Positions 1,197 to 63,376 of a stretch of DNA of 64,000 bases are shown here, one piece after another. The DNA comes from a virus. The notes beneath the pieces are model-generated. The model was not told where the DNA came from. It saw nothing but the letters and a program-made list of their open reading frames with translations, and ran no database searches. The DNA lies in the IMG/VR virus record IMGVR_UViG_3300025065_000001, positions 16,545-80,544 of that record. One strand, given 5' to 3'. Both the position numbers and the translations under genes were made by a program. Within the stretch, counting starts at the first letter, position 1. The number at the start of each line of letters is the position of its first letter.

Positions 1197-1238
1197 TTCG
1201 GAAGATTCAAACCGCAAATAAAAATTTGGAGATTGACG

Positions 1239-2444
1239 ATGCAAGCAGCAAATCTTAGTCAGATTAAACGCGCCCCACTTAACGTGGTTTTAGCGGGTAT
1301 TAATAGTGAGCACAGCGACGAATCTATTCGCGCTGGCGTAAAGCTGGTACAAGCAGCAAAACAATACGGTATTAACGTTCGTGATTACCTAAACCTAGCA
1401 GTTGACGTTCGTGCGTCGAATGATGAAAAGGCTGGTAAAAACTTCCGTTTGGATAACGGTAACTTTATGACCGGCTACCAAGCCGCTATCGTAGAGTTGA
1501 ACCTTCCGTTCAAAAACGCTTTTGAGCAAGGCATTACCCTTCAAGCTGCAGCGGATACTTTCAGTGCACGCCCAGGCTCTCGCGCACTTTTCCCAGAAGT
1601 TATCGATGATATGCTTCAGTGGAATACGCGCCAAGATATGTTCGAATCAACGGCCCCTATGGTGGCGCAAACCCGAACTATCACTGGTAATGAACTTATT
1701 ACCACCGCAATTTTTGACGACCAAGGCCAGCTAAATACTTCGCCTATCGCGGAACTTGCGAACATTCCGATGCAGACTATCAAAAGCTCTGATAAGTCGG
1801 TTAAGTTCTTCAAACATGGTTCTGGTATCCGTACCTCATACGAATTCGAACGTCGTGTGAGCTTAGATATTCTTACCCCATATGCTGCCCGTATAGCGCG
1901 TAACAAAGAAATCAGCAAAGTGAAGATGGCTACCTCGCTATTGATCAATGGTGATGGTGTTCACGAAGCTGCAGAAGTGGTTCCAGCTTCTAATTATAAA
2001 GATTGGGATGCGGCTAAAGGCCTTAAAGGTAACTATGTTGCCTTAGCGGACTTCTTGGCGCAACGTGCGCGTAAAGGCGTACCGGTTGATACTATCGTAG
2101 GTAACTACGATATGTGGCTAGAACTGTTCCTAATGTTCTTACCAACTCAACCTAACGGTAAGTCTACCTCTGAAATTCTTCAGGAGAACGGTGGTCCTCG
2201 CGTGGCTCTGGCCATGGACTTCTTAAGCGGTGTCAACTTCCATATTTCAAGCTCAGCCCCTACGGGTAAGCTGATTTGTTATTCGAAGGCTGACACGCTG
2301 GAAGAACTTATCGAAGCCGGTTCTGTACTGTCTGAGTCTGAGACAGCAATCAAGAACCAGTCGATTACTTACGTGAAAACTGAGAACTCAGGCTATCGCC
2401 TAGTTTACGGTGATACTCGCGTAATCTTCGATACCACGGCCTAA
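1239..2444 (+). CDS. Major capsid protein (HK97 fold)
   Basis: ~400 aa, syntenic position, followed by a hairpin. ATG lies inside the box GGAGATTGACGATG. Confidence 0.8.
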   Translation: MQAANLSQIKRAPLNVVLAGINSEHSDESIRAGVKLVQAAKQYGINVRDYLNLAVDVRASNDEKAGKNFRLDNGNFMTGYQAAIVELNLPFKNAFEQGITLQAAADTFSARPGSRALFPEVIDDMLQWNTRQDMFESTAPMVAQTRTITGNELITTAIFDDQGQLNTSPIAELANIPMQTIKSSDKSVKFFKHGSGIRTSYEFERRVSLDILTPYAARIARNKEISKVKMATSLLINGDGVHEAAEVVPASNYKDWDAAKGLKGNYVALADFLAQRARKGVPVDTIVGNYDMWLELFLMFLPTQPNGKSTSEILQENGGPRVALAMDFLSGVNFHISSSAPTGKLICYSKADTLEELIEAGSVLSESETAIKNQSITYVKTENSGYRLVYGDTRVIFDTTA

Positions 2445-2455
2445 CCAACAATAAC

Positions 2456-2471
2456 CCCCTTAATTAAGGGG
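2456..2471 (+). terminator. Hairpin after capsid gene
   Basis: CCCCTTAATTAAGGGG palindrome. Confidence 0.5.
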
Positions 2472-2491
2472 GCTACTTGGAGAATCAACTA

Positions 2492-2929
2492 ATGAAAATG
2501 ATCTTAGCTAAAACCACTAAAAATTTTATGCTAATGACGCGTTTCGGAATTATTGAAGCGTTCCGCCCTTCGGTAATTGGCCATTGCACGGAAGTGGACC
2601 AGTTTGTTTCACAGCAGCAAATAAAGGTGCTGGATAACGACTTGCCAGATAACGCCACGGATGAAGAGTTCAAAAAGTTCTTTGACGATCACGATGGTGA
2701 CTGGGAAACCGCACTGGAAAATTTCAAGCTGAGTCTTGAAGGCATTGAAGAGAGTAAGGAAGACTCTGGCGAAGGTGATAAGGAAGACTCTGATAAAGAG
2801 ACTGGCGAAGGTGATAAGGAAGACTCTGATAAAGAGACTGGTGAAGGTGATACGGACAACTCACCAGAACCGGCACCGGCACCAGCCCCTAAGAAAACCA
2901 CGACTCGCACGACTAAAGCGAAGTCTTAA
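2492..2929 (+). CDS. Hypothetical protein with acidic repeat tail
   Basis: ORF with SD GGAG; GEGDKEDSDKET repeats, then Pro/Lys-rich end. Confidence 0.6.
   Translation: MKMILAKTTKNFMLMTRFGIIEAFRPSVIGHCTEVDQFVSQQQIKVLDNDLPDNATDEEFKKFFDDHDGDWETALENFKLSLEGIEESKEDSGEGDKEDSDKETGEGDKEDSDKETGEGDTDNSPEPAPAPAPKKTTTRTTKAKS
2768..2851 (+). repeat. 36-bp in-frame tandem repeat (2.3 copies)
   Basis: GGCGAAGGTGATAAGGAAGACTCTGATAAAGAGACT twice plus a partial copy. Confidence 0.9.
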
Positions 2930-5783: not shown

Positions 5784-5838
5784 GTTTCATCCTCCTTCAG
5801 CAAGGTATCAATAATAACCTAAAATTTGGAGATTGACG

Positions 5839-6669
5839 ATGGCTGGTGAAGCTAAAACAACTGATTTTATGTTGGGTACTGCCACTGTAATGATTGGTAA
5901 CCCAGAAGACCTCTACAAACTAAACCCAGAACAACATTCTGTGGGCCTAGTTAAGAATTTCACAATCGAAGCAACCAAGGAACGTTCTGACCTTACCCAA
6001 GGCCGAACTAACGATGTTGTTTTCACACTAACAACCGGTGCCACGACTCGAGGCACATTCGAAATGTATGAATACACCGAAAAGAACCTTGCTTACGCGT
6101 TAGGTCTAGACGGTGGGGAGTTGGTATCTCCTGAAGGTGATGCTCACGTAGTTAAGACTTCTGCTTCTTTCTCAGCCGGTTCGGTTACTCTAGCTCTCAA
6201 TGATGGTACAGGACAGGATATTGAGGTAGGTAGTTGGGTTAGTGTTCGCGACCCTATTTCAGAAAATATTGTTTTAGGTACCGTAAAAACTACTTCAGGA
6301 CTAACGGATGGTACAGCAGCAACCGCTACTATCGAAGTAGAAGTCCCTGACAGCACTATGGCTTGGGAAGTTCCGGCTGGCGCATATGTATCCCTAGTAA
6401 CGGTACTTGATGTGGGCTCAACGGATGTTGACCGAGACTTTGCCGCTAAGGTTCAAGGCCAGCTAGCTAACGGTAAGTGGATCACACTTCTTATTCCTAA
6501 GATGCGTGTTTCTTCAGGTCTTACTATGGCATTTGGTACCGACAACTTCGGTAATACACCGTTTGAGTTTACGCCACTTAAAGTTACACCTTCCGATACT
6601 TACTATGCACCTTTCAAAGGTACCTCTGGTAAGTTAGTTCATGACTCAGTACAAAGCGCATTGTCGTAA
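5839..6669 (+). CDS. Major tail tube protein
   Basis: Thr/Gly-rich, 276 aa, precedes chaperones and tape measure; followed by a terminator. Confidence 0.75.
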   Translation: MAGEAKTTDFMLGTATVMIGNPEDLYKLNPEQHSVGLVKNFTIEATKERSDLTQGRTNDVVFTLTTGATTRGTFEMYEYTEKNLAYALGLDGGELVSPEGDAHVVKTSASFSAGSVTLALNDGTGQDIEVGSWVSVRDPISENIVLGTVKTTSGLTDGTAATATIEVEVPDSTMAWEVPAGAYVSLVTVLDVGSTDVDRDFAAKVQGQLANGKWITLLIPKMRVSSGLTMAFGTDNFGNTPFEFTPLKVTPSDTYYAPFKGTSGKLVHDSVQSALS

Positions 6670-6719: not shown

Positions 6720-6732
6720 AAGGAAATTGACG

Positions 6733-7080
6733 ATGAGTGATAACCCTCCTGTAACCTTTACTATCAGCGTTAACGACGAAGATAAAGAAGTTTTCATGAG
6801 TTTTGCGCTACTCAATACCATCACAGGGTATTTTAGAACTGCGGATGAACTCGAACAAATCTTACTAAATCCAGACGTTCGGGCGAGTGTCATTACTGAA
6901 CTCCTATCTGAAAGAAATGAGACGGGCCGAATAACCCAGAATTTCGATATTAATACAATGAAGGCAGACCCAGACCAAATACTGGACTTGCTGGAATGGG
7001 TATCGGAGCACGTTGAGACTTTTTTTATGAAGGCTCTACAAAGAGCCAAGCAACGAATGAAGAAGAAGCAGACCACTTAG
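6733..7080 (+). CDS. Tail assembly chaperone (lambda G-like)
   Basis: Between tail tube and tape measure; contains slippery T TTT TTT at 7020-7026. Confidence 0.75.
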   Translation: MSDNPPVTFTISVNDEDKEVFMSFALLNTITGYFRTADELEQILLNPDVRASVITELLSERNETGRITQNFDINTMKADPDQILDLLEWVSEHVETFFMKALQRAKQRMKKKQTT

Positions 7081-7391: not shown

Positions 7392-7410
7392 CAATTAGGG
7401 GAAATTGACG

Positions 7411-10400
7411 ATGGCCGGCAGCACTGCATCCAATACAATTAGAAATACCTTACTTAATTTTACCGTCGATCCTAAATCCAAAAAGGTAATCGAGGAACTA
7501 ACTCGCGAGTTTGAAAAGCTAGAGCGGGTCACACAAGCCGCGAGTCAACAACTTCAAGCCAACATTAAGGCCATTAAGGACACCCCACAGGGGCGCTCTG
7601 AACTCGCCCAGAACGCTAAGAATGAAGTTAACACCCAACGCAAAATCTTAAGTGAGAACCAAAAGAATGCGCGTGCGTTACTAGATCAAATTGCCTTAAC
7701 CCTTGGGAAGGGACTTAACCCTCAACAGCAACAGCAGTTAGTGAAAGGTTTGAATCAAGCCTTTGGGGAAATTACAGGTCGCTTCACTAAACAGGCGCAA
7801 GCGCAAGCCAAGAAACAAGCAAAGGACCTTGCTGATTATTACGATCTTCAATTTCGTAAAAACCCCACCGTCCCAAAAGGTAGCCAGCTCTATAAATCTA
7901 GAGTAAACGCGTTAAACGAAAGTGAATTGCGCACAGGTATTCAAAGGCAAAAGCTTTTACGTAGTGGAGCCCAAAGTGCGCTTAACGATGCTATTCGTCT
8001 GGGGGATGTTAGCCTTGAGAAGAAAGCTCAAAGTGCACTTAAGAAACTTGAATCGGGTTTAGTCGCTGCAGAAGCACGACTAAAGAAGTTTACCGAGGCT
8101 TCTAAAAAAGCAGAAGTAGCACAAGACACCCAAGCTAGAACCGTAAGACGAACCCTTAAATCCTACAATGATGATGAGTTTCGATTAAACCCTACCGTAG
8201 CTAAAGGGCAAAAGGTTAAAGCGTCTCAAATCTCTACGTTGAACAGAACTCAACTAGAGGACGCTATTGCTCGGAATAAAGTTTACGAGAATGCTGCCCG
8301 TAAAGCGTTGAAGTCCAGTCTGGCGCCGGAGACGAGAAATAAAACGCTAGAGAATAACGCGGGTAAAGCGCTAAGAGAGCTTGAAGAATCAACCAAGCTT
8401 GCCAAAGCACGTTTAAAAGAATTCGCTGATGCTGCGGCCGAGGCCAAACGCGCTGAAAAAGCCGCACAGAAAGCCCAGCGACCTTCGACACAAGTGACCG
8501 AACAACAGCGTGTAGCTCGTCGTATTGAACAGATTAGACAATCTCAAACCAATCAGCGCTTAGATGGCGGAGCCCAGCTATTCAGAAACCAAGGGCAATT
8601 ACTTCGTAACTACGCTGTGATGGGCGCCGGTGTTGGTGGCCTTGCAACGTCCGCGACTTTCTCAACAGAGTTAGATAGACAGTTCAAACAACTACAATCC
8701 ATTGTGAACCTCACCAATGAGGAAATGGAAGAGCTATCTAAAAACCTTATTGATGTTTCGGAGAAAACTAAGTTTACAGCCACGGACGTAGCGGATGCGG
8801 CCATAACGCTTGGTCAGGCTGGCTTAGGTCAAAATGATATCCAAAATGCGATAGAGGGCGTTACGCTCTTTGCTACAGCGGTAGGTTCGGACTTAAAAAG
8901 TGCCGTTGACCTAGCCACATCAACATTAGGGGTATTTAATAAAGACAGTTCGCAGATGACCAACATCGTAGACAAAATGACTACGGCTGTGAACAGCTCC
9001 AAATTGAACCTAGATAAACTCGCCTTAGGTCTTCAGTACTCGGGTAACTTAGCGGCCCAGTCGAATGTGACTTTTGAAGAAACGGTCTCCGCACTTGGCG
9101 CAATGGCTAACTCGGGTATCCGAGCGGGTTCGACACTTGGTACCGGCCTTCGACAAATTATTATATCCCTGCAGAAACCGTCAGAGTCTTTTACCGAGAT
9201 TGTACACAACCTCGGGCTCTCAATGTCTGACCTAGATATTACGACTCACGGTTTAATACCGGTAATGAAAACACTGGCCGAGAGTGGCTTTACTGTCCGT
9301 GATGCTATGGAAAGTATGGAAGTACGTGCAGCATCCGCATACGGAGCGTTTGCAAACAACATTAGCGTAGCGGAAGACTTAAGCGAACAAATGCGTATTG
9401 GGGGTTCTGCGGCCCGTGCGAACGACACGCAGATGGAAGCCTTAGCTAACCAGCTAGACCGTTTAGGCTCTATCAGTAAATCGATTGTATATGAGTCAAT
9501 GGAGCCACTACTAGACACTATTACCAAGCTTACTGAAAAGACCGCTGACTTTCTTTCAGTGGTAAGAGACCTCGGGCCAATTTTAAGCGCTTTAGCAGTA
9601 CCAGCTTCCATACTAGGGGGCGTACTGGCCACAAGAAGCGTTCTTCGTCTGGGAGCGGGGTTACTTGGCGGCGTCGATATGCTAACCGGAGGAAAAGGTA
9701 AAGGTAGCACAATCTCTAGGCTTGCTAAGGTTGCCACTGGTAGAGGATTAGGTACGGCTGCGGGGTTCGCCGCTCGTGCAATACCTGGGGTTGGGCTTGC
9801 TACTGCCGTAGGTACCGCAGGGGTTTATGGGTACCAGTACCTCGATGGCCGAGCCCGAGCTAATGATCGTGTTGATAGTACGCAAGCGGCCTTAAACCGT
9901 GGTACCTCTGAAACTAAGGTTTATGAAGACCAGCTTAAGAAAGTTGGGTCGGCTATCGATACGCTTATCTTAAAGCAAAATGACCTTACAAATAACGAGT
10001 CCCTTCAGCGCGAGATACGTCGTCTTAACGATGAGTTTCGTCAGCAAGGGTTGTACATCGATGATTCGATAGACAGCTACGACAAGCTTATTACCAAGAT
10101 GAAGGAGTTTGAGGACGCTACTCGTGATGGGGTGGGGTACCTTCAAACCCAAAACCGAAATAACTTTGTTGATAACTCTGAGGCTAAATTAAATGAGCTG
10201 TTTTCAATCGGCTTTTTCGATTCATCTGAGCGCAGACTATTAGCCCAAGAGAAGGGAACGGATGTTAGCGTTGGTAGCGGTAAAACCGCGACCCAACGAG
10301 GCCGCTTTGCCAGCCGAGGAAATGTTTATAGAAGTCTGATAGATACCGCGCTGCCGAATTTCGGGGATGATCTTGCGAGTATCAACGAGCTTATCCGCAA

Positions 10401-13155: not shown

Positions 13156-13184
13156 TTGACAATAAAATTGTGTGTCCGTAATAT
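13156..13184 (+). promoter_or_regulatory. Sigma70-type promoter
   Basis: TTGACA (13156-61), 17-bp spacer, TAATAT (13179-84). An AT-only palindrome lies upstream at 13115-13141. Confidence 0.75.
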
Positions 13185-13190
13185 TGACCT

Positions 13191-13269
13191 CGGTTAGTAG
13201 TCCAAGTGGCTCCTAATTATCGTCAATTTCCAAATCAACGCCTCAGCCTTGCTGGGGTGTTCTGTTTTT
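13191..13269 (+). ncRNA. Putative trans-acting antisense sRNA (~80 nt)
   Basis: Lies between promoter and terminator; contains ATCGTCAATTTCCAAAT, the reverse complement of the start-associated box of 27 genes. Confidence 0.7.
13237..13269 (+). terminator. Intrinsic terminator of the putative sRNA
   Basis: AACGCCTCAGC-CTT-GCTGGGGTGTT, an 11-bp stem with 2 G.U pairs (valid only on the + strand), then CTGTTTTT. Confidence 0.7.
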
Positions 13270-13338
13270 GGGCGTTTGAAAAATATTCAATCTATTCCTC
13301 TTTTCGGTATACTAAGCGAAAATTGAGGGAAATTGACG

Positions 13339-13827
13339 ATGAAAGAACTTTCACAAGAAATTCAGTCTCAACGGCATTCGCTGACCCCTGAAGACTTAAC
13401 CACCTATCTAGAACTCATTATCGAAGACCCTGATGGTCAGCCGGTTATCATTCGTCTTACGGATAGAGAAACCCGTGAGTGGAAAGGTACCACATGGGTG
13501 CATTCTCCTTTTAAAGTGACTGGGGTTGGAAACAAATCCAGCGGTGAGAAAAATCGTCCTAGTTTATCCCTCCCCAATGAAGGGGGGCTTTATAGTTACT
13601 ACTTGAACCAAGGTCTTTTAGAGGACTCCGTGGTAACCCGTTATAAAGCTCTCCCGCATGAGAAGGGGGGAACCCTCACTTCCAAACACGTATTTTATGT
13701 TTCACATGCCAGTAATATCAGTGCCTCTATCCTAACTCTTCAGTTGCGAAGGCTTTCTGACGGTAACAAAACAAAATTCCCACCCCGCAGATATGTGCAG
13801 CCAGAGTTTAGAACGGTAATCGTATGA
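13339..13827 (+). CDS. Minor tail protein (lambda L-like)
   Basis: Position; WKGTTW...PFKVTG...RPSLSLPN pattern. Confidence 0.6.
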   Translation: MKELSQEIQSQRHSLTPEDLTTYLELIIEDPDGQPVIIRLTDRETREWKGTTWVHSPFKVTGVGNKSSGEKNRPSLSLPNEGGLYSYYLNQGLLEDSVVTRYKALPHEKGGTLTSKHVFYVSHASNISASILTLQLRRLSDGNKTKFPPRRYVQPEFRTVIV

Positions 13828-15391: not shown

Positions 15392-15423
15392 AATCTGGCT
15401 AAATTGACGATATTGGGGCTTCC

Positions 15424-27414: not shown

Positions 27415-27487
27415 TCATTTACAGTCTTGCTTAAGGGTAGTATGCTTGATTGAAAATTAGGCTAATTGACGATACTTAGGCGGCAAG

Positions 27488-28902: not shown

Positions 28903-28921
28903 CGATAATTGGAGCTACAAC

Positions 28922-30937: not shown

Positions 30938-30962
30938 ATCGTCAATTTCCAAATTTTAAAAG

Positions 30963-34460: not shown

Positions 34461-34470
34461 CGTCAATTTC

Positions 34471-35257: not shown

Positions 35258-35282
35258 CGTCAATTTCCTAATTGTATAAAAC

Positions 35283-35789: not shown

Positions 35790-35813
35790 GCTCAACTCGT
35801 CAATTCATATTTT

Positions 35814-39387: not shown

Positions 39388-39437
39388 CGTCAATTCAATC
39401 CAAATTGTAGCGGCCCTCTAAGTGAGGGCCGACTTCA

Positions 39438-40046: not shown

Positions 40047-40135
40047 CGTCAATTTCCTTTAATTTTTAAGTATGAGACCAGCATTATAAAAAGTAATCAA
40101 GTGAGTTGCTGGCAAACTAACTGGATTTTTATTAA

Positions 40136-44082: not shown

Positions 44083-44508
44083 TTACTGCCACTCTTGGTC
44101 TTCTTCTTCAGAAGACCTCACAGGTATAGCCGATTCATCAAACAACTTGCCTAACTCGGCCATAACGCGCTGTATGCCGCCTTCATTATGTTTTGCTGCA
44201 AAGTATGCGTCTTTAAGTGCAATAACTTGTTTGGGATTAAGATACCCTAGCTCGGCAAGAGCTATCTGCACCCCTTGGTCATGTAATTTAACGATTCGTC
44301 TTGATATCTCTTGGAATACTGAGTAGTTCTCTGAGGATATACTCGACTGCTCAATAATATCTTTATTGAATTGGGTTTTTACCCTAACGGTATTTTCATA
44401 GTCTTTAGGTTCTACAACCAGAGGCCTACCAACTTCCGGCATTGGTGTACCTGAACTTGCTTCTGGTAAAACTTCATCAACTTTTTGCATTGGTGGAACA
44501 AATGGCAT
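44083..44508 (-). CDS. Hypothetical protein
   Basis: ORF with box at its start. Confidence 0.6.
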   Translation of the reverse strand: MPFVPPMQKVDEVLPEASSGTPMPEVGRPLVVEPKDYENTVRVKTQFNKDIIEQSSISSENYSVFQEISRRIVKLHDQGVQIALAELGYLNPKQVIALKDAYFAAKHNEGGIQRVMAELGKLFDESAIPVRSSEEEDQEWQ

Positions 44509-44519
44509 CGTCAATCTCC

Positions 44520-45407
44520 TTACTCTTCGTTATTCAAATTAAACGCCGCTTTAAGGTCCAGCGCTAACGATAGAAGTGCACTGGCTCCGAGATAGATTTC
44601 TGAATCGAGACGCGCTTCCTGTTGGTCCTTAGGAATATCGTCGCTTTCTTCAATCAAGCGGTCTGAATACTTGATACGCTTAACAGAACCATCTTCACAG
44701 AGCATAGCGGTCAATTGGTCGTCATAACTGACAGCAAGTTTCTGAACGAGCTTGCCTGAGTCTAAACACAGTTGAATTTCTTCTGAGTCGAGTTCTTGAT
44801 TTTTTGCACGGATAACCGCTTTGGTCTCATCTGTGGCTTGAAGCTCAGTCTCTTCGAGCAATTCAAATTTGTCAGGGTGGCCATTAACAATCCAGCTTGT
44901 TAGGTCTGAAGCGAGAGACCGTCTTGCGAATGGAACTACGGGTAAACTACCTAGCGCTTTACGAAGTACCGCAAGGAAGATTTCGGCCTCACCATCTGAA
45001 GAGGCATTCACTAACACTAGTTTATGCTCTGGGATGATTGTGCCAATAGTTGAGGTTTGGTCTGTGAACGCACGCGGCGTTAGGTGCGTAACTATTTCTT
45101 CTTTTAAGTCTTGACGCTGTTTTTTCCCAACCGGTGATCCCGTTTCCGCTTCAACAAGCTTAACTTTTTCTTCTAACTCACGGTTGATAACTCGCGCAGG
45201 GAGTATCTTGCTTTCTTTCAAAAGCTTAACCGTGTAAATACCTTGAACCTCATGAGCCAGTAAAGAACCAATGATAGGTGCAAAACCTAGAGAGGCTAGG
45301 GTATGTGAACCGCAAGGGTGGAAGGGGATTGCCTCTAGCGCTGGCACTAGGTTAGACAAGTCTACATTTTGAGTGAGTGAATAAATCTTTGCGTTTTTAA
45401 AATACAT
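44520..45407 (-). CDS. rdgC: Recombination-associated protein RdgC
   Basis: MYFKNAKIYSL...FHPCGS...ESKILPARVI...LRKALGSLPVVP...GKLVQKLA. Confidence 0.92.
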   Translation of the reverse strand: MYFKNAKIYSLTQNVDLSNLVPALEAIPFHPCGSHTLASLGFAPIIGSLLAHEVQGIYTVKLLKESKILPARVINRELEEKVKLVEAETGSPVGKKQRQDLKEEIVTHLTPRAFTDQTSTIGTIIPEHKLVLVNASSDGEAEIFLAVLRKALGSLPVVPFARRSLASDLTSWIVNGHPDKFELLEETELQATDETKAVIRAKNQELDSEEIQLCLDSGKLVQKLAVSYDDQLTAMLCEDGSVKRIKYSDRLIEESDDIPKDQQEARLDSEIYLGASALLSLALDLKAAFNLNNEE

Positions 45408-45431
45408 CGTCAATTTCCTGTTTTTAGTTAG

Positions 45432-47105: not shown

Positions 47106-47109
47106 AATC

Positions 47110-47803: not shown

Positions 47804-48318
47804 GCTACTTTCTCCTTCTCAAGCTGGTCATTCTCCCACTTTGAGAGGTAGTCGAACGCGCCGAGGTTTTCGTAAATTTTGCCGAGGGTCTCGAGGTCGA
47901 GGTTTTCCGTTTCATCTATAACCGGAATAGCGACCCAGGCCATCGTGATAACATGAAGTGGGTTCTGTTTTTCTTTGAATGCCACATGAACATCAATGAG
48001 ATATTTATTTAAACGCTCGTCTGATTGGCGGTAACGCGATTGGAAATAATGGGGCTCACTTACGACGTACTCTTTTCCGTTCTGGTCACGACAGACCACA
48101 GAGCATTCGTAATACCAATTGAAACAACCTTTCTCAACGCTCTCGGCCACATCCACCGTTACGTTAAGCTCCTCACCCGTCTTATAGTCAATAAGCGTGC
48201 AATACTTCGTTTCACCCAACACCATCGCGATAGCAAAGTTCTTCACTTTGTCGCGAACCACAAGGTCTAGGTACTTTCTAGGGTTGTATTTCTTATTACG
48301 CTTGGCTTTCTTTTTCAT
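47800..48318 (-). CDS. Hypothetical phage protein
   Basis: KRNKKYNPRK N-terminus; variant box GGAAATTGACTGATG. Confidence 0.6.
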   Translation of the reverse strand: MKKKAKRNKKYNPRKYLDLVVRDKVKNFAIAMVLGETKYCTLIDYKTGEELNVTVDVAESVEKGCFNWYYECSVVCRDQNGKEYVVSEPHYFQSRYRQSDERLNKYLIDVHVAFKEKQNPLHVITMAWVAIPVIDETENLDLETLGKIYENLGAFDYLSKWENDQLEKEKVA

Positions 48319-48922
48319 CAGTCAATTTCCGGTTGTCTATCTTCTTGCTGCGACGCTTTTTAGGCTTCTCCCAGTTAAGGCGCCCAACGTTCGAGTCTAC
48401 GAGTAAAATCCCTGTAGGGTCCCAGCAGAACCACGCATACTCGCAGCTATCACCACCCCCACCACTAAAGTCAGGGCGAGGTACCGCGACAATAATTTTA
48501 TCGGGCGGATTATCAGCCCAGAACTGTTCACGCTTCTTTGTCCCTAAAGCGTTAATACGCATTAAGAAGCATACAAACCCGTGGTCCGCGGCCTCACTGC
48601 GTGCTTTGGTGACAAACTCTTCGAAAAGCGAGAATGGGGGATTAGTTACGATAATATCGAAGTGTAATGGGCTAAGGTCTGTCTCTAGGTAGTTCAAACC
48701 TTCCTGAATTTCGCAGTAATACTTTTCAAAGTCCTGTGGTACCAAGTCGTAGATATTTCTTTTCAGACCACGACACGGCTCTAGGAACCTAGCTGGCCGG
48801 TTGTCGTAGGACGCAAAGTGCCTAAGTGCATCCCAGTCAATATACTTGAATAAGGCTTCGACAAGTTCTCGCGGGGTAGGGTAGTCTTCGAACTCAGCGA
48901 CCTTTTTATTTGTGCTACTCAT
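48296..48922 (-). CDS. DNA amino-methyltransferase (N6A/N4C)
   Basis: YPTP, LEPC, TNPPFS, EYAWFCW. Confidence 0.8.
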   Translation of the reverse strand: MSSTNKKVAEFEDYPTPRELVEALFKYIDWDALRHFASYDNRPARFLEPCRGLKRNIYDLVPQDFEKYYCEIQEGLNYLETDLSPLHFDIIVTNPPFSLFEEFVTKARSEAADHGFVCFLMRINALGTKKREQFWADNPPDKIIVAVPRPDFSGGGGDSCEYAWFCWDPTGILLVDSNVGRLNWEKPKKRRSKKIDNRKLTDEKESQA

Positions 48923-49757: not shown

Positions 49758-49776
49758 ATCGTCAATTTCCGAGAGT

Positions 49777-49820: not shown

Positions 49821-50921
49821 TTATTGTGCTGCGATTTGGCCTTGTGCCGGACCAATCAGTTTGAATTCCAAGGTACCCCACTTGTAAGTGATACCTTTAG
49901 GAGCAACCGGTTGGTTAGACACTTCAACAATCACTTTCTGACCTAATAAACCAGCTTGCTTACACGCATTGTGGAAGTTCTGCCAGTTCTGCCATCCCGT
50001 CTTAGCCGTAGTATGACCAATCATAATACCTGCTTGGGCAATTACCGTGCCTTGTTGGTCAGCAATGTCGTTGATTAAACGCATTGGTAACTGAACACTT
50101 GGGAACGGTACGTTAGGTTTTTTCGGGTCTGTGGTGGTGTGGTAGGCTGTCATTACCGCATTCGCCCAAGGTTGACCATCTGAACCAATCAAACCATCGT
50201 ATGTGTGGACATAGTTGGTTTGATCACCTGTAGCCCCTGCTACGGTCCAGCGAACCATTTGGCACAACATATAGCCCACGTTCTCAGTCATATCAATCTC
50301 AACCTGGAAGGGGTTAAGAAGTGTTGACGGAGCACTACCTAAAACCATACCGTGGTAGCTTGGCTTCAGCCAATCTTGAACCAACAGGTCAGAGTTAGAC
50401 ATGGTATCCATCGACATTTCGCGCTGACCAATAAACTTAGCCAACTCTGGCGGTAAGTTCGCTGGTAGGTCCATGCCGGTGTTTCCAACTGGGTTCACAG
50501 CCATAGGCGTTTGCTGAACCTGAGCCGTTTGCTGAGCTTGAGCCGTTTGCTGCGATTGCTGGGCTTGCGCTGCTTGTTGTGCTTGTAACTGTTGTTGTAA
50601 GTGCTGTGGAATAGCACTTGTTTGCTGCGTATTAACCGGCGTGGTATTAGCTTGCTGGTTAACAACTTGGGGGTTAGCTTGGTTCGTGGTTTGTTGTGGT
50701 GTGGCTTCCGCAGTCTGAGTATAAGTCTCAGTCTGGTTAACAACCTGAGGGTTAGCTTGAGCCTGTGTAGCTTGCTGCTGCGTAGTCTCGGCTTGAGCGG
50801 TGTTAGCTTGCTGGTAGTCTTGACCTACGGCTTGCTGGGTAACTTGAGTTTCTTGCTGAGTAGTAGCGGCTTGAGCTGCGTTATTTTGAGCAGCGGCGAT
50901 CATTTGTTCGATATTGTTCAT
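49821..50921 (-). CDS. Gln-rich protein, possible ssDNA-binding protein
   Basis: ~140-aa Q/T/A low-complexity N-terminus plus a globular domain; lies in the replication cluster. Confidence 0.45.
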   Translation of the reverse strand: MNNIEQMIAAAQNNAAQAATTQQETQVTQQAVGQDYQQANTAQAETTQQQATQAQANPQVVNQTETYTQTAEATPQQTTNQANPQVVNQQANTTPVNTQQTSAIPQHLQQQLQAQQAAQAQQSQQTAQAQQTAQVQQTPMAVNPVGNTGMDLPANLPPELAKFIGQREMSMDTMSNSDLLVQDWLKPSYHGMVLGSAPSTLLNPFQVEIDMTENVGYMLCQMVRWTVAGATGDQTNYVHTYDGLIGSDGQPWANAVMTAYHTTTDPKKPNVPFPSVQLPMRLINDIADQQGTVIAQAGIMIGHTTAKTGWQNWQNFHNACKQAGLLGQKVIVEVSNQPVAPKGITYKWGTLEFKLIGPAQGQIAAQ

Positions 50922-51054
50922 CGTCAATTTCCTGATTGTAGATTAATTACATTTTGATTAATTACTGTTTGTGCGGCTTTCGCCCTTCGCTTTTCTCCGA
51001 AGTCCAGCTATAGCGCAGTTTAATGCGGTATAGATGGTAACCTTAGCTTATTAA

Positions 51055-53197: not shown

Positions 53198-53227
53198 GGC
53201 TATCGTGTCTCTTATCGTCAATTATTC

Positions 53228-53920
53228 TTATGCTACTTTGTCAAACGAACGGGTACCTTTGCAGTACTCGGATAATACGTAACTTCCCAAGTGTTCTAGG
53301 GGCAAGCTGATTAAATCTCTTAGTGGTATAAGTTTACTAAGATTCGTTTCTAAACGCTGAACGTGCTTTGGAAGCACAATTGAAGAGTCACCACAAAAGA
53401 TAACCGTTCTTGGAGACGTCTTTGCAGCCGTAGCCAGCTTTATCACGGATTCGTTGTCTGTGTTCTTTAAATCAACAAACACCATTGGGTGAATGTTTGT
53501 TTTATCAATATGTTTGATAGCGTGGTTCATGCCCACAACGAACAAAGGCTTTACCCACGTATGAAGTGGAGAGTTCAACCGTTCTAAACACGCAAGCCAT
53601 ACCGCAGCATCTGGAAGTTGTTCTTCGTCTAGGAAGTAAGTTTTTCCATTAGGTATTGGTAACATAGCTTGAACGAGCGGGTCGGCTATAAGGTTGTTGA
53701 ACTTACTTAAGTGGACCTTACTTAGCTTACGTGTAGCTAAATTCACATTGATATTATGTGAGCACTGGTTTCTCAGTGGTTTAACCGTAAGATTTGATTT
53801 GGTGCTTAGGCCTATAAAGTTCCAGCCATAGGGACAAGTATCTTGGTAGATATAGCTAACACCCTCGTCCTCGTGAATACCATAGTGCCCAAGGGGGGTG
53901 GGTTTTTTTTGCTGTTGCAT
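53228..53920 (-). CDS. Hypothetical protein
   Basis: ORF with box at its start. Confidence 0.55.
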   Translation of the reverse strand: MQQQKKPTPLGHYGIHEDEGVSYIYQDTCPYGWNFIGLSTKSNLTVKPLRNQCSHNINVNLATRKLSKVHLSKFNNLIADPLVQAMLPIPNGKTYFLDEEQLPDAAVWLACLERLNSPLHTWVKPLFVVGMNHAIKHIDKTNIHPMVFVDLKNTDNESVIKLATAAKTSPRTVIFCGDSSIVLPKHVQRLETNLSKLIPLRDLISLPLEHLGSYVLSEYCKGTRSFDKVA

Positions 53921-53946
53921 CGTCAATTTCCTGATTGTCTGAGTAA

Positions 53947-56309: not shown

Positions 56310-56539
56310 ATCGTCAATTTCCAAATTTTAAAGTTAAGCCAGTAGGCAAAGTTAAAACTACGCTTTCAACTTTTGTATATCAAGTTAAAAACGAAGTCCG
56401 TCTACAAAAACACAATTTATTTGTGTTTTTAATATTTATTAAAAAAATATGCTTTCTTTAATTTATTTAATTGGTTAGAATTTGTTCGTTTTGTTTTGTA
56501 GTAAAAGATTTACATTATGGCCTTGATGGAGTACTCGCC

Positions 56540-56860
56540 GTGTCTAAGAAAATTGACGATAATATAGAACCACCATGGGAGCTAGAGCGCCGTAGGCGAA
56601 TAGCTCGAAAATTTAAAAATATGCGCCAGAATTATCGATTGACGCAAGAAGAACTCGCTATTGCTGCGGACGTTCACAAGAATACTATTTCAAATGCTGA
56701 GCGATACGGCAAAATCTCCACTGAAGAATTCTACAAATATCAACAAATTGCAAAACGCGCTCACATGAAGAAGGGACTCGGTGCGGTAGTGAGTAAAATT
56801 ACCTTATCGGATATCCCATTCTCGGATTTTAAAAGATTCTTAGCGACGTTTTGGGAGTAA
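56540..56860 (+). CDS. XRE-family HTH regulator
   Basis: MRQNYRLTQEELAIAADVHKNTISNAERYG; likely GTG start at 56540 after GGAG. Confidence 0.8.
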   Translation: MSKKIDDNIEPPWELERRRRIARKFKNMRQNYRLTQEELAIAADVHKNTISNAERYGKISTEEFYKYQQIAKRAHMKKGLGAVVSKITLSDIPFSDFKRFLATFWE

Positions 56861-56863
56861 TTT

Positions 56864-57949: not shown

Positions 57950-58789
57950 CTATAACAGTATTGGTAGTTCTGTTGCCAGTTCCCGACGTTTTAGCAGTGG
58001 GACTTGGTTTTTTATCCAAGTCTTAATTTTTTGAATCCGACTGCCAGCACGCTCTTTTTTATGGTTCGCTACTATCGATAAAGCTTCTAATAACGCCCAT
58101 CCTTCACCGTCAGGGCCAACGTAACCCCAGCAAGAATCATCAATGTCGTGACCTTCGATAACATAACCATACACATCCCCTTCTAGATACGCTGCATAGG
58201 TTTTAACTTCGCTATCTAAGTATTCATAGACCTTTTGAATGCGTGCTTTTGTTAACCGCTTAAAACCATACTCTTCACGAGCTTTCTCTTTGGTAACGTA
58301 GATAAAACCGACTTGGCCAGAGTCCCAAGAACACGAGAAACCCCCTGTATTCATCGTTATTCCAGAATGGTCGTACAGGTAGAGTGGGAGGATGAGGTAG
58401 TATTTATCAAGTCGCGCTTCAATCTTCTTCTCAACCAGTTCTTGGTAATCTTTAGTCCCTTGGGCATCCCAATTTGTTGAAGGCCAGTTATGTTCTAGTC
58501 TTTCCAACATCGCCTCAAATCCTGGCTCAACTTCTTCTACCATACCGATACGATAGTCTTGGTAGCTTACTGAAGGTTGTTCGTCACCTAAATTGTATCT
58601 ACTATGCCAGCACACCATTGTGCCCACGTTATCCCACTCACGAGGGCTTTCAGCATCCCCATCACGCTCGATTTTAATTGTTATATCTTTTATCTGAGTT
58701 TCAGACTCACCAATTAAATCAAGGGTGTTAAAATCTAGGTTTAATTTCTGGCAGTTTGCCTTCAGTTGTTTTGATAGTTCAGGGTGCAT
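57950..58789 (-). CDS. Conserved phage hypothetical protein
   Basis: SPREWDN...LPLYLYDHSG...WDSGQVG...DSCWGY motifs. Confidence 0.65.
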   Translation of the reverse strand: MHPELSKQLKANCQKLNLDFNTLDLIGESETQIKDITIKIERDGDAESPREWDNVGTMVCWHSRYNLGDEQPSVSYQDYRIGMVEEVEPGFEAMLERLEHNWPSTNWDAQGTKDYQELVEKKIEARLDKYYLILPLYLYDHSGITMNTGGFSCSWDSGQVGFIYVTKEKAREEYGFKRLTKARIQKVYEYLDSEVKTYAAYLEGDVYGYVIEGHDIDDSCWGYVGPDGEGWALLEALSIVANHKKERAGSRIQKIKTWIKNQVPLLKRRELATELPILL

Positions 58790-58846
58790 CGTCAATCTCC
58801 AACAAGTTAATTTCAAGAGGGGGAGAACATTCCCCCTTTCAGGGTT

Positions 58847-59197
58847 TTAAATTTCGCAACTGGGCTGGGCGTCATGCCAAGCTTCAAAAACGCGTAAACG
58901 AATCGCTTCAGGTATTTCTATCTTGTCCGCACAGCTCGTTATATATGAGACTGCTCTCATGTTTTCAGTGAACACGAACAAGGTAGGCTTCAACGAGTTT
59001 CGAGCTCTAGACGCTGCCCCCATATCAATATTGTTATCAATAAAAACCACTTGGGGGTCTATTTCATTGAGGTGAGCTTCAATGAACTCTTTCAGGCTAG
59101 GGTTAATCAAGCTCATGTAAGCTCGAACGCAATGGCCTATAAAAGCACTGTTGATCTCTTCAAGAATTGCTTTAGTGTCTGCGGTACTAATTTGCAT
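58847..59197 (-). CDS. Hypothetical protein
   Basis: Box at its start. Confidence 0.55.
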   Translation of the reverse strand: MQISTADTKAILEEINSAFIGHCVRAYMSLINPSLKEFIEAHLNEIDPQVVFIDNNIDMGAASRARNSLKPTLFVFTENMRAVSYITSCADKIEIPEAIRLRVFEAWHDAQPSCEI

Positions 59198-59399
59198 CGT
59201 CAATTTCCTTCTGTGATCGAGTGAAGAACTCTTCACTCGTTAAATTACGGATATCTACAATTTGTTGTTGTAGTCTCTGTATGGCTTCGTTCTTAGCACG
59301 GTTTAGTGTTTTCTCCCCCGTCTCATAAGGTCGAGGAATAAAGTAACCAGCAAGAATTTCTTTTGTCCGAAGCAGGGTGCCTAGGTCTTTACCACTCAT
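59187..59399 (-). CDS. Hypothetical protein
   Basis: Coupled short ORF. Confidence 0.45.
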   Translation of the reverse strand: MSGKDLGTLLRTKEILAGYFIPRPYETGEKTLNRAKNEAIQRLQQQIVDIRNLTSEEFFTRSQKEIDDAN

Positions 59400-59842
59400 T
59401 CGCTGTCCCATCCCCAGTTACGCGCTTCAGGGCAGACTTCTTCTCGGGTTACTGCACTGTCCGTGTAATTACTGAACCACTCAGATAAAGCCGTTTCGTC
59501 GAGTTCGGCTAACGTGTCCCACTCATAGACAGTGGTGCTTTCCTGCTCGAGGTAGAAACCGTTCTCTTTGATATACTCTTTGCAGTGTTCAATCCATTCG
59601 TCCCAGTCTGAAATCCAGTCCATTTCTTCAACATTAAGATACGCATTACCAAAAGGACGTCCGTTAGTATCATTGAAAGACTTTTTCCAAAACTCTTCAC
59701 TATCCCCGACGCCACCTTCTAATTCAGCAATCGTCGCTTTTAAAACACGAATAATCTCGCTCTTCATCTTAGTCGTGTCGTCGGTAGCCTCTCCTGCATG
59801 GGAGACTGATAATTCAAAATCAAAATTACTTATACGTGTCAT
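59396..59842 (-). CDS. Acidic hypothetical protein
   Basis: Box at its start. Confidence 0.55.
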   Translation of the reverse strand: MTRISNFDFELSVSHAGEATDDTTKMKSEIIRVLKATIAELEGGVGDSEEFWKKSFNDTNGRPFGNAYLNVEEMDWISDWDEWIEHCKEYIKENGFYLEQESTTVYEWDTLAELDETALSEWFSNYTDSAVTREEVCPEARNWGWDSE

Positions 59843-59893
59843 CGTCAATTTCCAACAAGTTAATTAAAAGGGGAGAACATTCCCCCCTAAGAT

Positions 59894-60085: not shown

Positions 60086-60087
60086 GG

Positions 60088-62090: not shown

Positions 62091-62224
62091 AATCGTCAAT
62101 TTCCAAATTGTAAAAGTTAATTGAAGGGGGGAGAACATTCCCCCCAGGTTAAACGGCTGCAGCAATCGCTTTTGCTTCAGCCAGGACTTTTTCTTCTTCC
62201 GCAAGCTCTTGTTCCGCTAGGTCT

Positions 62225-63028
62225 TCATGCGGCCACCTGTTTAGTTCGGCCATACGTTTTATGGCGTAGTTCTCGATAACCGTGACTGCTCAAGATATTT
62301 CTAGTCTCGGAAGTGATAGACCATGTAGAACAGAACTCAGTTCGTAGCCCGATACCTTGATAGTCTTTGCGCTGATCACCCGTATTTATCATTCGGTCAA
62401 CAACCAATAAGTCGTGTGGATACCCCTTCACGAACCATTCTATTTTATTGCCGAACTCGGTTAATACGTCTTCAAAAAACATCATGCCTGTGTCGTAGGC
62501 CAGCGTGTCTTTGGCAATAACGAAACTATATAGCGCGGCCAGAAAGATATCGGCATTGGCAATATCGCCACCCCAACGCCAGTCATGATCTGGGTGGGTC
62601 GGGGTTCGAGACTGACTTAAAATTATTCGGTGAGGTTGGGCGCTTAACATCAAGTCAGTTAAAGCTTTCGATAAACTCACACCGCGAGGGACAATAAATT
62701 TCTTACTGCTTTGGTGAAGCTTTACGCGCCATTTGTGAGCCGTGCGGTTACCTAGGTCGATAAGCTTCTCACTCATCATTTGTAACTTTTCTTCCCAGCT
62801 CAAAACTGAATACTGTTCAGAATACACACTTATGGCTTGCTTAAGCTGAAAATCAAATAGTTGGCGTAGCTTGTCGTGAAGCTCTTCAACGGTACCCGTA
62901 CCATCTGAGCCAAATCGAGAGGTATTATCTTCTAAGAACTTTACGAAGCGCGGTTGTGTAATCGCGTCAGCAATTACAAATAGCATCGTGGCCGTAGCCT
63001 GTTTATTGATACGTTTAACATCAGTCAT
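62225..63028 (-). CDS. Hypothetical protein
   Basis: Box at its start. Confidence 0.55.
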   Translation of the reverse strand: MTDVKRINKQATATMLFVIADAITQPRFVKFLEDNTSRFGSDGTGTVEELHDKLRQLFDFQLKQAISVYSEQYSVLSWEEKLQMMSEKLIDLGNRTAHKWRVKLHQSSKKFIVPRGVSLSKALTDLMLSAQPHRIILSQSRTPTHPDHDWRWGGDIANADIFLAALYSFVIAKDTLAYDTGMMFFEDVLTEFGNKIEWFVKGYPHDLLVVDRMINTGDQRKDYQGIGLRTEFCSTWSITSETRNILSSHGYRELRHKTYGRTKQVAA

Positions 63029-63086
63029 ATCGTCAATTTCCAATTTTAAAAGTTAATTAAGAGGGGGGAATATTCTCCCCCGAGCG

Positions 63087-63365
63087 TTACGACTTTTCAG
63101 GTCGTTCGAACTTCTCACCACAATAGCAGCAATGGCTTGCTAGTATCGTTATTGAATCTTTCTTAAGATTCTTTTGCGGGGTACCGTCTCGCTTCATAGG
63201 CCGATACTCGTAGTCAATTTTAGGACTGGTTGGAGCATACTGACCTTCCGCAAGGATATAAGCTCGGCCCTGCCATTCGGCTTTAAATTCTTCCACGTTG
63301 TCCGGCAATTGCTCTTTAATATGCTCGGTTACTTTTTCCATCGTTTCTTCAAAACAATTACACAT
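63087..63365 (-). CDS. Cys-rich hypothetical protein
   Basis: MCNC...HCCYCGEK. Confidence 0.6.
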   Translation of the reverse strand: MCNCFEETMEKVTEHIKEQLPDNVEEFKAEWQGRAYILAEGQYAPTSPKIDYEYRPMKRDGTPQKNLKKDSITILASHCCYCGEKFERPEKS

Positions 63366-63376
63366 CGTCAATTTCC

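Follow-up and report, generated by a model that had tools for sequence, protein, structure and literature searches.

A start-associated box in a marine temperate phage as a candidate common target of one phage-encoded antisense RNA

About one third of the genes of the marine temperate phage IMGVR_UViG_3300025065_000001 (80,544 bp) carry the same short box at their starts, which raises the question of what recognizes it. The window analyzed here is a stretch of 64,000 nt of this record. A first-pass annotation counted 27 sense copies of a 9-mer, against about 0.5 expected by chance, and favored recognition as RNA by a complementary small RNA (sRNA) over a DNA stoperator.

Sequence and placement of the box

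We performed an exact search for the 9-mer ATTGACGAT. The window contains 28 copies, against a mean of 0.45 in dinucleotide-preserving shuffles (maximum 3; none of 100 shuffles reached 28). Both figures of the annotation thus hold, as 27 copies are sense copies at gene starts and the 28th is inverted at 13219-13227(-). The whole phage genome (80,544 bp) contains 42 copies of the 9-mer and 33 of the extended box GGA(A/G)ATTGACGAT. Only positions -4 to +9 have a high information content, corresponding to GGAAATTGACGAT(G), a box of 13-14 letters. The spacer ATTGACG is invariant in 41 of 41 copies, and no conservation was detected past +9 in an alignment of the 41 copies.

The sense copies fall into two classes. 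Twenty-two of the 27 (class 1) end in ATG or 1-3 nt before ATG, as the annotation had described for almost all copies, and the other five (class 2) lie 12-20 nt upstream of a separate Shine-Dalgarno sequence (SD). All copies outside the RNA gene described below are in sense orientation, on the plus strand from 1232 to 28898 and on the minus strand from 30938 to 63372. The reported flip with the genome arm therefore holds, with two exceptions, the inverted copy at 13219 and a copy at 56552 in a small plus-strand unit. Variant boxes noted near 48320 and 35797 are real. The features are summarized in Table 1. At some early genes, an additional AATTAACTT element resembling the T7 epsilon enhancer lies upstream, and a G-rich hairpin was also seen upstream of some early genes.

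Table 1 Boxes and elements of the candidate RNA unit in the window.
Feature	Position	Strand	Remark
Class-1 box, major capsid gene	1228..1240	+
Class-1 box, tail tube gene	5828..5840	+	function by synteny
Class-1 box, tail chaperone gene	6722..6734	+	function by synteny
Class-1 box, tape measure gene	7400..7412	+
Sigma70-type promoter of anti-box RNA, TTGACA-17-TAATAT	13156..13184	+	10/12 matches
Candidate sRNA, ~79 nt: 5' hairpin, seed, terminator hairpin, U tail	13191..13269	+	prediction
Seed, single-stranded, sRNA nt 29-46, AUCGUCAAUUUCCAAAUC	within 13191..13269	+
Inverted box copy (anti-box), exact mirror of box	13219-13231		in single-stranded centre of unit
Predicted terminator hairpin and T run	13237-13261	+
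Class-1 box, minor tail gene directly downstream of sRNA	13328..13340	+	cis pairing with anti-box predicted in read-through RNA
Class-2 box, 12 nt before GTG of J-like gene	15399..15411	+
Class-2 box, upstream of 130-aa gene at 27488	27461..27473	+
Class-2 box, upstream of 114-aa gene at 28922	28894..28906	+
Class-1 box, excisionase	30938..30950	-
Class-1 box, SbcD-like nuclease	34459..34471	-
Class-1 box, RecU-type resolvase	35256..35268	-
ProQ/FinO-domain protein, 168 aa, probable sRNA chaperone	35283..35789	-	Pfam PF04352
Variant box GAATTGACGAG, ProQ leader, 6 nt before ATG	35796..35806	-
Class-1 box TTGAATTGACGATG, origin-binding helicase	39386..39398	-
Class-1 box, MazG-like gene	40045..40057	-	weak match
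Class-1 box, 141-aa gene	44507..44519	-
Class-1 box, RdgC	45406..45418	-
Variant box GGAAATTGACTGATG, 172-aa gene	48318..48330	-
Class-1 box, 5'-3' exonuclease	49758..49770	-
Class-1 box, 366-aa gene	50920..50932	-
Class-2 box, 17 nt before in-frame ATG	53214..53226	-
Class-1 box, 230-aa gene	53919..53931	-
Class-1 box, ATP-dependent DNA ligase, first gene of leftward early arm	56310..56322	-
Class-2-like box, 15 nt before ATG 56576 of HTH repressor-like gene	56548..56560	+
Class-1 box, 279-aa gene	58788..58800	-
Class-1 box, 116-aa gene	59196..59208	-
Class-1 box, 148-aa gene	59841..59853	-
Class-1 box, DUF3560 gene	62092..62104	-
Class-1 box, 267-aa gene	63029..63041	-
Class-1 box, 92-aa gene	63364..63376	-

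Most functions that the annotation had assigned to the boxed genes were matched to a protein family: capsid, tape measure, J, SbcD-like phosphoesterase, origin-binding helicase, RdgC, 5'-3' exonuclease, excisionase, ATP-dependent ligase, RecU-type resolvase and, weakly, MazG. The lysis genes, "L", tail tube and chaperone have no family match, and their assignment is by synteny only.

The box contains TTGACG, but a reading as a promoter -35 element was rejected, as a -10-like hexamer follows 16-18 nt downstream in only 3 of 41 copies. The box was also rejected as the general ribosome-binding site of the host, provided that the host belongs to Alteromonadaceae: 80 genomes of this family contain 0-2 copies each, about the chance level, indicating that the box is not the usual ribosome-binding site there. 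One 4.8-Mb Alteromonadaceae metagenome-assembled genome (MAG) contains nine copies on five small contigs, which are presumably phage fragments.

The box could instead be only a very strong translation initiation region (TIR) optimized by the phage itself, or the site of a RegA-like protein enhancing or repressing translation, kept uniform by selection or gene conversion. GGA(A/G), a 7-nt spacer and ATG fit such a site, as does the upstream enhancer-like element of some early genes. The box also marks independently initiated genes (33 of 60 genes with a gap of more than 20 nt) and is nearly absent from coupled ones (1 of 37). Against it, ATTGACG is not required for SD function, and Alteromonadaceae genomes do not use the box.

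An RNA unit carrying the mirror of the box

The inverted copy lies in a unit running from promoter to terminator at 13156-13269(+), between two tail genes, and is on the strand that gives an anti-box RNA, predicted to be about 80 nt long. The unit is kept in five sequence-distinct relatives with its promoter, 5' hairpin, exposed anti-box, terminator and compensatory stem changes, and equivalent promoters occupy the same place in four other lineages. Folding of seven variants from five lineages gave the same fold, with the seed unpaired in all. In a structure alignment of six sequences, 94% of the cells are paired, and compensatory changes occur at 8 of 22 pairs, compared to 3.0 +/- 1.3 in shuffles (none of 500 reached 8). 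Approximately 20% of these cells are G.U pairs, where the opposite strand would have A.C mismatches, indicating that the folding is strand-specific. No match to the C4 family (RF01695) or any other Rfam family was detected by cmscan of the whole window at gathering thresholds. A 13-bp dyad, TTATTGACAATAA, over the -35 region of the sRNA was set aside because it is not conserved in the relative L034.

Metatranscriptome contigs from four seawater runs of four studies were compared with a 4-kb stretch that includes the unit; such contigs give no ends, strand or level, and contig-free parts are not evidence of silence. The deepest contig covers about 13207-13475, two contigs begin at 13207/13208, just past the predicted transcription start, and three of the four runs have no contig upstream of ~13207. 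This is a weak hint that transcription starts at the unit. The contigs read through the terminator into the minor tail gene, so they represent a promoter-proximal RNA and not a discrete 80-nt species.

We evaluated the complementarity of the seed to the TIRs of the phage. In 35 of 108 TIRs, a run of 13 or more contiguous pairs with sRNA nt 27-45 was found, compared to none with the reversed sRNA and 2 of 1320 internal gene windows. A seed duplex energy of -18 kcal/mol or lower was obtained for 39 TIRs, compared to 0.85 for shuffled seeds. Duplex folding of the whole sRNA with 55-nt TIRs was dropped, as controls scored as low; contiguous-pair scores and seed-only energies were used in its place. 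The exposed seed is thus predicted to be complementary to the ribosome-binding regions of several distant mRNAs.

In the read-through RNA 13191-13365, the anti-box is predicted to pair with the box of the next gene in cis (MFE -53 kcal/mol, z -4.5). This pairing, and the RNA contigs that do pass the terminator, are what would be expected if the box were a plain ribosome-binding site and the anti-box a cis anti-SD within the minor tail operon leader. However, a terminator with compensatory changes separates the anti-box from the supposed cis target gene, and a role in cis only does not predict RNA wobble rules at the boxes of 40 other genes, described below, or give any role to a co-inherited ProQ. 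We consider this explanation unlikely.

Co-variation of box and anti-box in relatives

A megablast search with 20 kb returned no match among isolated phages, and relatives were recovered by protein search. One of them, Pseudoalteromonas phage KB12-38, is cultured with its host and carries the box system. The box and anti-box are GGAAATTGACGAT and AUCGUCAAUUUCC in the phage itself, GGAAATCGACGAT and AUCGUCGAUUUCC in G001, and GGATTGACA and UGUCAAUCC in KB12-38, and the two co-vary across five lineages. The sequence of L041 (box GGAATTGACGATG) ends before the sRNA locus, and this genome is excluded from the anti-box comparison. For each genome, the cognate sRNA is the best pairing partner of the TIRs; JWF pairs with none.

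Co-variation of box and inverted copy would fit a DNA operator equally well, since one protein reading all sites would give the same result. In that case, the box would be an asymmetric stoperator-type operator, at which the HTH (56576-56860) or an RHH repressor binds double-stranded DNA and blocks or stalls RNA polymerase across the prophage, and the inverted copy at 13219-13231 would be merely another site. A 13-bp asymmetric site that is present in many copies and oriented along with transcription resembles the L5 stoperators (PMC3203893). The phage is also temperate, with an integrase, an excisionase and this repressor-like HTH, and its relatives are classed as proviruses.

In G001, where the sRNA has G, 21 T-type and 19 C-type boxes were found, whereas in genomes where the sRNA has A, the ratios of T to C boxes were 42:0, 29:0 and 25:0 (96 of 96 T). 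KB12-38 has at least seven GGATTGAT boxes opposite an sRNA G. RNA pairing predicts such an asymmetry, with a C/T mixture opposite G and only T opposite A; the asymmetry comes from two lineages, G001 and KB12-38. Core transitions preserve pairing in 54 cases and break it in 9, on 21 and 18 sites, respectively. Some boxes in G003 and G004 carry pairing-breaking variants such as GGAAACTGACGATG, and most boxes of G004 exceed its seed by one base. In pattern scans of viral contigs, the C-type boxes among the matches listed were on single-match contigs, the anti-box matches listed were mostly one unrelated coding sequence, and at least four true sRNA loci were obtained, all listed ones from already known lineages.

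The G.U argument of the annotation, that A-to-G deviations tolerated by wobble favor RNA, is confounded in that form because GGAG makes a better SD and the start codon requires the G of ATG. The G.U share of the box deviations (32-67%) exceeds a null of uniform substitution but comes close to one of transitions only; the share by itself decides nothing, and only the position-specific asymmetry is informative. In this cleaner form, C/T against T, the argument stands.

The asymmetry in G001 may partly reflect mosaic recombination, as its late-arm boxes are mostly C-type and its early-arm boxes mostly T-type. This mosaic look would also suit boxes that serve as gene-boundary microhomologies for modular exchange among related phages, with regulation secondary, and boxes do lie at gene boundaries and are common to relatives differing in gene content. 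However, a 13-bp homology is short for this purpose, and the SD/ATG register, the conserved RNA unit and the ProQ link are all unpredicted by it. We regard such an origin as highly improbable.

The ProQ/FinO gene of the phage matches PF04352 with an E-value of 7.3e-13 (48.9 bits, cut-off 27), and among solved structures E. coli ProQ is the closest (5nb9, E 1.6e-6). It is retained in KB12-38, G001, G003, G004 and G005. ProQ is present in six of six box-bearing genomes and none of six box-less relatives, and a search of the box-less loci with an RNA model detected no sRNA. FinO/ProQ genes exist on phages, but no function has been described for any of them (PMC9977716).

A DNA operator leaves this co-occurring RNA chaperone gene without explanation. 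The same is true of the C/T mixtures that occur precisely where the sRNA has G, with T only where it has A, and of the conserved promoter, hairpin and terminator around a single inverted copy, strand-specific by G.U pairs. The fixed start-codon register of 22 of 27 copies, in which the box itself is SD and ATG, also argues against it. We thus disfavor the DNA operator and think it quite unlikely. The RNA recognition favored by the annotation is supported by the conserved unit, the co-variation, the wobble asymmetry and the co-occurrence of ProQ.

Comparison with known systems and the proposed mechanism

RocC/RocR of Legionella pneumophila and FinO/FinP of F-like plasmids each consist of a FinO-domain protein and one dedicated sRNA with a terminator hairpin and 3' U tail, and such an sRNA pairs in trans with the ribosome-binding regions of several shared-target mRNAs and represses their translation (PMC9977716). 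The phage likewise has a FinO-domain gene, the same predicted sRNA architecture and a common target box at its TIRs. The terminator hairpin with 3' U tail, the element that FinO domains bind, is predicted in the phage RNA. RocR has four chromosomal targets and FinP one in cis, whereas the phage has about 40 nearly identical sites in one third of its own genes, including virion genes. Unlike in RocC/RocR, both candidate partners are encoded by a phage, and binding and repression in the phage are predictions by analogy.

The start-associated sequences (SAS) of cluster K mycobacteriophages are asymmetric 13-bp motifs including the SD core, located a few bases before mostly ATG starts of 11-19 genes, in one orientation and rare in the host; their authors allowed for either an RNA or a protein as the partner. 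The phage box has the same properties, being asymmetric, about 13 bp long, near start codons, in one orientation and rare in Alteromonadaceae. Its sequence is unrelated to the SAS consensus GGGATAGGAGCCC. SAS occur only in the non-structural half of the genome, whereas both arms of the phage carry boxes (capsid, tail tube, tape measure, J and early genes). About half of the SAS have ESAS inverted repeats, and no 17-bp ESAS-like pair was seen at the phage boxes. No sRNA or ProQ is known for SAS, whereas a cognate candidate RNA gene was identified for the phage box. The function of SAS was still unverified in 2025 (PMC12699233). That SAS work in the same way as the phage box would be a conjecture. 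Stoperators of L5 (cluster A) share the many genome-wide copies of a 13-bp asymmetric site oriented with transcription. They are DNA sites for a repressor acting on transcription, as contrasted with SAS (Pope 2011, PMC3203893), and have neither the start-codon register nor a complementary RNA gene.

The phage RNA lies upstream of a boxed minor tail gene, an arrangement shared with c4 of P1/P7, which lies upstream of its own target in the same transcript. With CI RNA of P4 and sar of P22, c4 belongs to the antisense immunity RNAs of temperate phages, which are small, are made in the lysogen, pair with phage mRNA (c4 over the ribosome-binding site) and keep lytic functions off. Each of these RNAs acts on one or two targets within a single operon, unlike the phage box set, and to our knowledge none of the three has a dedicated phage-encoded chaperone.

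From the sequence evidence, translation is likely repressed by the phage sRNA together with the phage ProQ, through masking of SD and AUG. The box would be the common target site of one phage-encoded, trans-acting antisense sRNA of ~79 nt, transcribed from its own sigma70-type promoter. The exposed middle AUCGUCAAUUUCC(AAAU), between the 5' hairpin and the intrinsic terminator, would act as the seed; in ~38 of ~107 phage mRNAs, it can anneal to the SD, spacer and start codon through 13-19 contiguous base pairs. At class-2 sites, pairing would extend into the CUCCUAAUU stretch of the sRNA, thereby covering the SD that lies separately downstream. With SD and AUG occupied, the 30S subunit should be unable to bind, and the RNA would repress translation globally, at early, replication, lysis and virion genes. 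A single RNA could thus probably turn off translation of much of the phage at once. The phage ProQ/FinO protein is the probable stabilizer and matchmaker, by analogy with FinO for FinP and RocC for RocR. We infer discrete accumulation of the sRNA, pairing in vivo, ProQ binding and a repressive outcome.

The purpose would presumably be prophage silencing, exclusion of related superinfecting phages or lytic timing. The timing logic of a repressor over early and late genes alike is not obvious. As a tentative and rather doubtful extension, the sRNA and phage ProQ may hold the translation of ~40 genes off in the lysogen and also switch off incoming relatives with the same box. The seed/box pair might then mark out an immunity or exclusion group whose evolution proceeds via G.U intermediates, a non-coding box unit (genome 9386-9404) might be a decoy that releases the block on induction, and SAS-type motifs in unrelated phages (cluster K, with a single inverted copy) might be of the same kind.

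FinO-domain chaperones with an antisense sRNA controlling one to four targets are already known in plasmids and Legionella. If the proposed mechanism is true, one RNA gates one third of the genes of a virus via a tag in their ribosome-binding sites, a simple route to whole-genome post-transcriptional regulation. It would offer a concrete, testable mechanism for start-associated motifs, unexplained since 2011, and add an RNA-level layer to prophage silencing and possibly superinfection exclusion. A regulator and its ~40 targets could then shift specificity together through G.U intermediates.

A shared box at translation start sites

According to IMG/VR, the phage genome is 80,544 bp long with terminal repeats, and the window comprises its bases 16545–80544. 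The 9-mer ATTGACGAT was found 28 times in the window, against a mean of 0.45 and a maximum of 3 in dinucleotide-preserving shuffles, in line with the approximately 0.5 chance copies estimated in the first-pass annotation. It is the commonest 9-mer of the whole genome (42 copies), which contains 33 exact copies of the full box, GGA(A/G)ATTGACGAT. The information content was nearly maximal from −4 to +9 and approximately zero outside this range, with a weak AT-rich bias just upstream.

All window copies except one, which is inverted relative to its arm, were oriented in the same sense as the local genes. The 27 sense copies counted in that annotation were recovered as 22 class 1 and five class 2 copies. 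The class 1 box ends in the ATG (GACGATG) or 1–3 nt ahead of it (GACGATATG), and the class 2 core, AATTGACGAT, is located 12–20 nt upstream of a separate Shine–Dalgarno sequence (SD) and start codon. Among the boxed targets, family searches confirmed genes for the capsid, tape measure, J, an SbcD-like nuclease, origin-binding helicase, RdgC, 5′-3′ exonuclease, excisionase, DNA ligase and a RecU-type resolvase.

We compared box occurrence with gene organisation using a simple ORF-based annotation with about 107 genes. Among the 37 genes that overlap or abut their upstream neighbour, one has the box, against 15 of 22 with an upstream gap of 21–60 nt and 18 of 38 with a gap of more than 60 nt. 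Thus, the box marks genes in need of independent initiation. Coupled genes carried ordinary, varied SDs.

The only host clues were an Alteromonadaceae metagenome-assembled genome (MAG) with a 96%-identical fragment and the marine metagenomes in which related sequences occur. If the host belongs to this family, the box can be ruled out as its ribosome-binding site, as 80 other Alteromonadaceae genomes contained 0–2 boxes each, approximately the chance level. The MAG itself contained nine boxes on five small contigs, which we take to be phage fragments. The box was also ruled out as a promoter, because a −10-like hexamer lay at the right distance in only 3 of 41 copies.

Two further start-region motifs were observed. 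The leader CAACTACG(C/A)AAGGAG, a conserved start region distinct from the box, is found ahead of four small genes in tandem, and a fifth copy is a looser match. It may be the signature of an array of paralogous genes or of a second regulon. In an early-gene cassette, a G-rich hairpin (GGGGAGAAC../..GTTCTCCCC) is followed by AATTAACTT(T)TAAAATTT, which resembles the epsilon enhancer of T7 gene 10, and then by the box. Analogues of this cassette are present in the cultured box-bearing relative Pseudoalteromonas phage KB12-38 (GGGGTAACGTTACCCC, 18 copies; AATTAAACTAAAAC, 10 copies).

Features of the box system and neighbouring elements (window positions unless stated)
Feature	Position	Strand	Remarks
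Candidate promoter	13156–13184	+	TTGACA-17-TAATAT
Dyad TTATTG-A-CAATAA	13150–13162	+	perfect, 13 bp
Predicted RNA	13191–13269	+	about 79 nt
Inverted box copy	13219–13227		core 9-mer
Terminator with T run	13237–13261	+	follows promoter
Read-through transcript	13191–13365	+	predicted fold, MFE −53 kcal/mol, z −4.5
Class 2 copies	15403, 27465, 28898, 53222, 56552		
ProQ/FinO-domain protein	35283–35789		PF04352, E 7e-13; nearest solved structure, E. coli ProQ
Second shared leader	45756–47338	−	
Early-gene cassette	58800–63080, also 56331–56337	−	
Probable lysogeny switch region	56540–57622	+	inside leftward early arm; HTH gene at 56576–56860, ATG at 56576
Possible decoy	9386–9404 (genome; L008 ~1499–1517)	−	outside window

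A candidate sRNA gene around the inverted copy

The inverted copy is located in a 221-nt gap between two tail genes, together with a candidate promoter and a terminator. The RNA predicted from this gap, which matched no Rfam family, folds into a 5′ hairpin, an unpaired 18-nt stretch (AUCGUCAAUUUCCAAAUC) and the terminator. The box, along with the ATTT often found ahead of it, is complementary to AUCGUCAAUUUCCAAAUC. At 35 of 108 translation initiation regions (TIRs), 13–19 contiguous pairs with nt 27–45 of the candidate sRNA are possible; such pairing was found at no TIR with the reversed sRNA and in 2 of 1320 internal gene windows. The energy of the seed-only duplex was −18 kcal/mol or lower at 39 TIRs, compared to a mean of 0.85 TIRs for shuffled seeds. 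At class 2 sites, the bases 3′ of the box (GATAATT..GGAG) extend the complementarity into CUCCUAAUU of the sRNA, and therefore the separate SD would be covered too.

For the read-through transcript, the predicted fold pairs the anti-box in cis with the minor tail gene's own box and encloses the terminator. The dyad in the table lies across the −35 hexamer of the sRNA promoter and is not conserved in the lineage of the box-bearing genome G001 (L034).

Protein searches returned KB12-38 (capsid 58% identical), the virulent Achromobacter phage JWF group (approximately 50%) and uncultured viral contigs with tail-tube identities of 96%, 68%, 62%, 52% and 35–44%. The RNA unit lies at the same place in five sequence-distinct lineages: the phage's own group, L034/L036, L037/L038, L039/L040 and KB12-38. 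In each lineage, the unit comprises a sigma70-like promoter (16–17-bp spacer), a 5′ hairpin, an exposed anti-box and a terminator, and the sequences of the 5′ hairpin and terminator differ between lineages. When six sequences were aligned, 94% of the cells were paired, and two-sided changes occurred at 8 of 22 pairs, compared to 3.0 ± 1.3 in shuffles (0 of 500 reached 8) and 0–1 in slid controls. G.U accounted for about one-fifth of the paired cells; as these would be A.C on the opposite strand, the structure can be assigned to the anti-box strand. When KB12-38 was left out of the covariance model, the model still recovered the KB12-38 unit (E 0.07) and matched nothing in box-less loci.

Small parts of the 4-kb stretch around the RNA unit were found in six seawater metatranscriptome runs, four of which, from four studies, were mapped onto it as contigs. 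The deepest contig in each of the four covers approximately 13207–13475, and two of these four contigs begin at 13207/13208, 16–17 nt past the predicted start. In three of the four runs, no contig lay upstream, and depth drops downstream. Taken together, these contigs hint weakly at promoter activity in nature. They also show read-through into the minor tail gene, and they reveal neither a discrete sRNA nor the strand or level of transcription.

Recognition at the RNA or DNA level

As read from the genomes, the box and the putative anti-box change together across the phage itself (GGAAATTGACGAT and AUCGUCAAUUUCC, respectively), G001 (GGAAATCGACGAT and AUCGUCGAUUUCC) and KB12-38 (GGATTGACA and UGUCAAUCC). 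When the TIRs of five genomes were crossed with five sRNAs, each genome paired best with its own sRNA, and JWF TIRs paired with none of the five. JWF lacks the box, ProQ and a gap at the syntenic site. A different repeat, the palindrome GGTTCGTAACGAACC, occurs about 11 times in its genome.

This co-variation alone fits recognition of the box either as RNA or as DNA. Three observations favour RNA, as the first-pass annotation had proposed. First, the sole inverted copy sits within a conserved, strand-specific transcription unit. Second, the box variants show a wobble asymmetry, based on two lineages. In G001, whose sRNA has a G, 21 ATTGACGAT and 19 ATCGACGAT boxes were found, whereas three genomes with an A at this sRNA position gave 42:0, 29:0 and 25:0. 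In KB12-38, at least seven start-site boxes are GGATTGAT opposite an sRNA G, with the remaining match kept. This pattern agrees with the pairing rules, in which G pairs with C or U and A with U only. Within the part of the core that excludes the SD and start codon, 54 transitions preserve pairing (A to G opposite U or C to T opposite G) and nine break it, with near-equal numbers of available sites (21 and 18, respectively). Third, a ProQ/FinO-domain protein is encoded in all six box-bearing genomes and in none of six box-less relatives, and a variant box lies in the leader of the phage proQ itself.

The C/T mixture of G001 may have arisen by recombination, as this genome looks mosaic and its C-type boxes are mostly in the late arm; even so, the mixture is in the direction viable under RNA pairing. 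Some box variants in G003 and G004, two further box-bearing relatives, break pairing, and the G004 seed is one base shorter than most G004 boxes. We consider the RNA-target model as such likely, and any single biological role less so.

Proposed mechanism and role

The sRNA, transcribed from its own promoter, would pair with the box on phage mRNAs and mask the SD and AUG, which would block initiation. By analogy with FinO/FinP and RocC/RocR (PMC9977716), the phage ProQ would stabilise the sRNA via its terminator and 3′ tail and speed annealing. RocC/RocR is the nearest known system by mechanism, and the start-associated sequences of cluster K mycobacteriophages are the nearest by appearance. 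The function of the latter is still not known (PMC12699233), and in four cluster K genomes, a single inverted copy lies at a distance from all gene starts (PMC3203893). By analogy, this copy could lie within an antisense RNA gene. Full-text literature searches returned no paper on an sRNA that targets dozens of start sites in the genome of the phage encoding it, and no function for a phage-encoded ProQ.

A non-coding stretch outside the window contains ATTTGGAAATTGACGATAA, which matches the sRNA seed perfectly over 19 nt and is not followed by a start codon. It is flanked by a weak TTGACC-15-TATACT on the upstream side and, approximately 110 nt downstream, by a terminator. This stretch may be an sRNA decoy.

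A rightward unit, probably the lysogeny switch region, consists of a repressor-like HTH gene, with a class 2-like box before its ATG, and a gene for a 252-aa protein without family matches. Judged from its sequence, the phage is temperate; it carries integrase, excisionase and repressor-like HTH genes, and its relatives are classed as proviruses. Therefore, the most likely uses of the system would be the silencing of leaky prophage expression and the exclusion of related incoming phages, or the damping and timing of the lytic programme.
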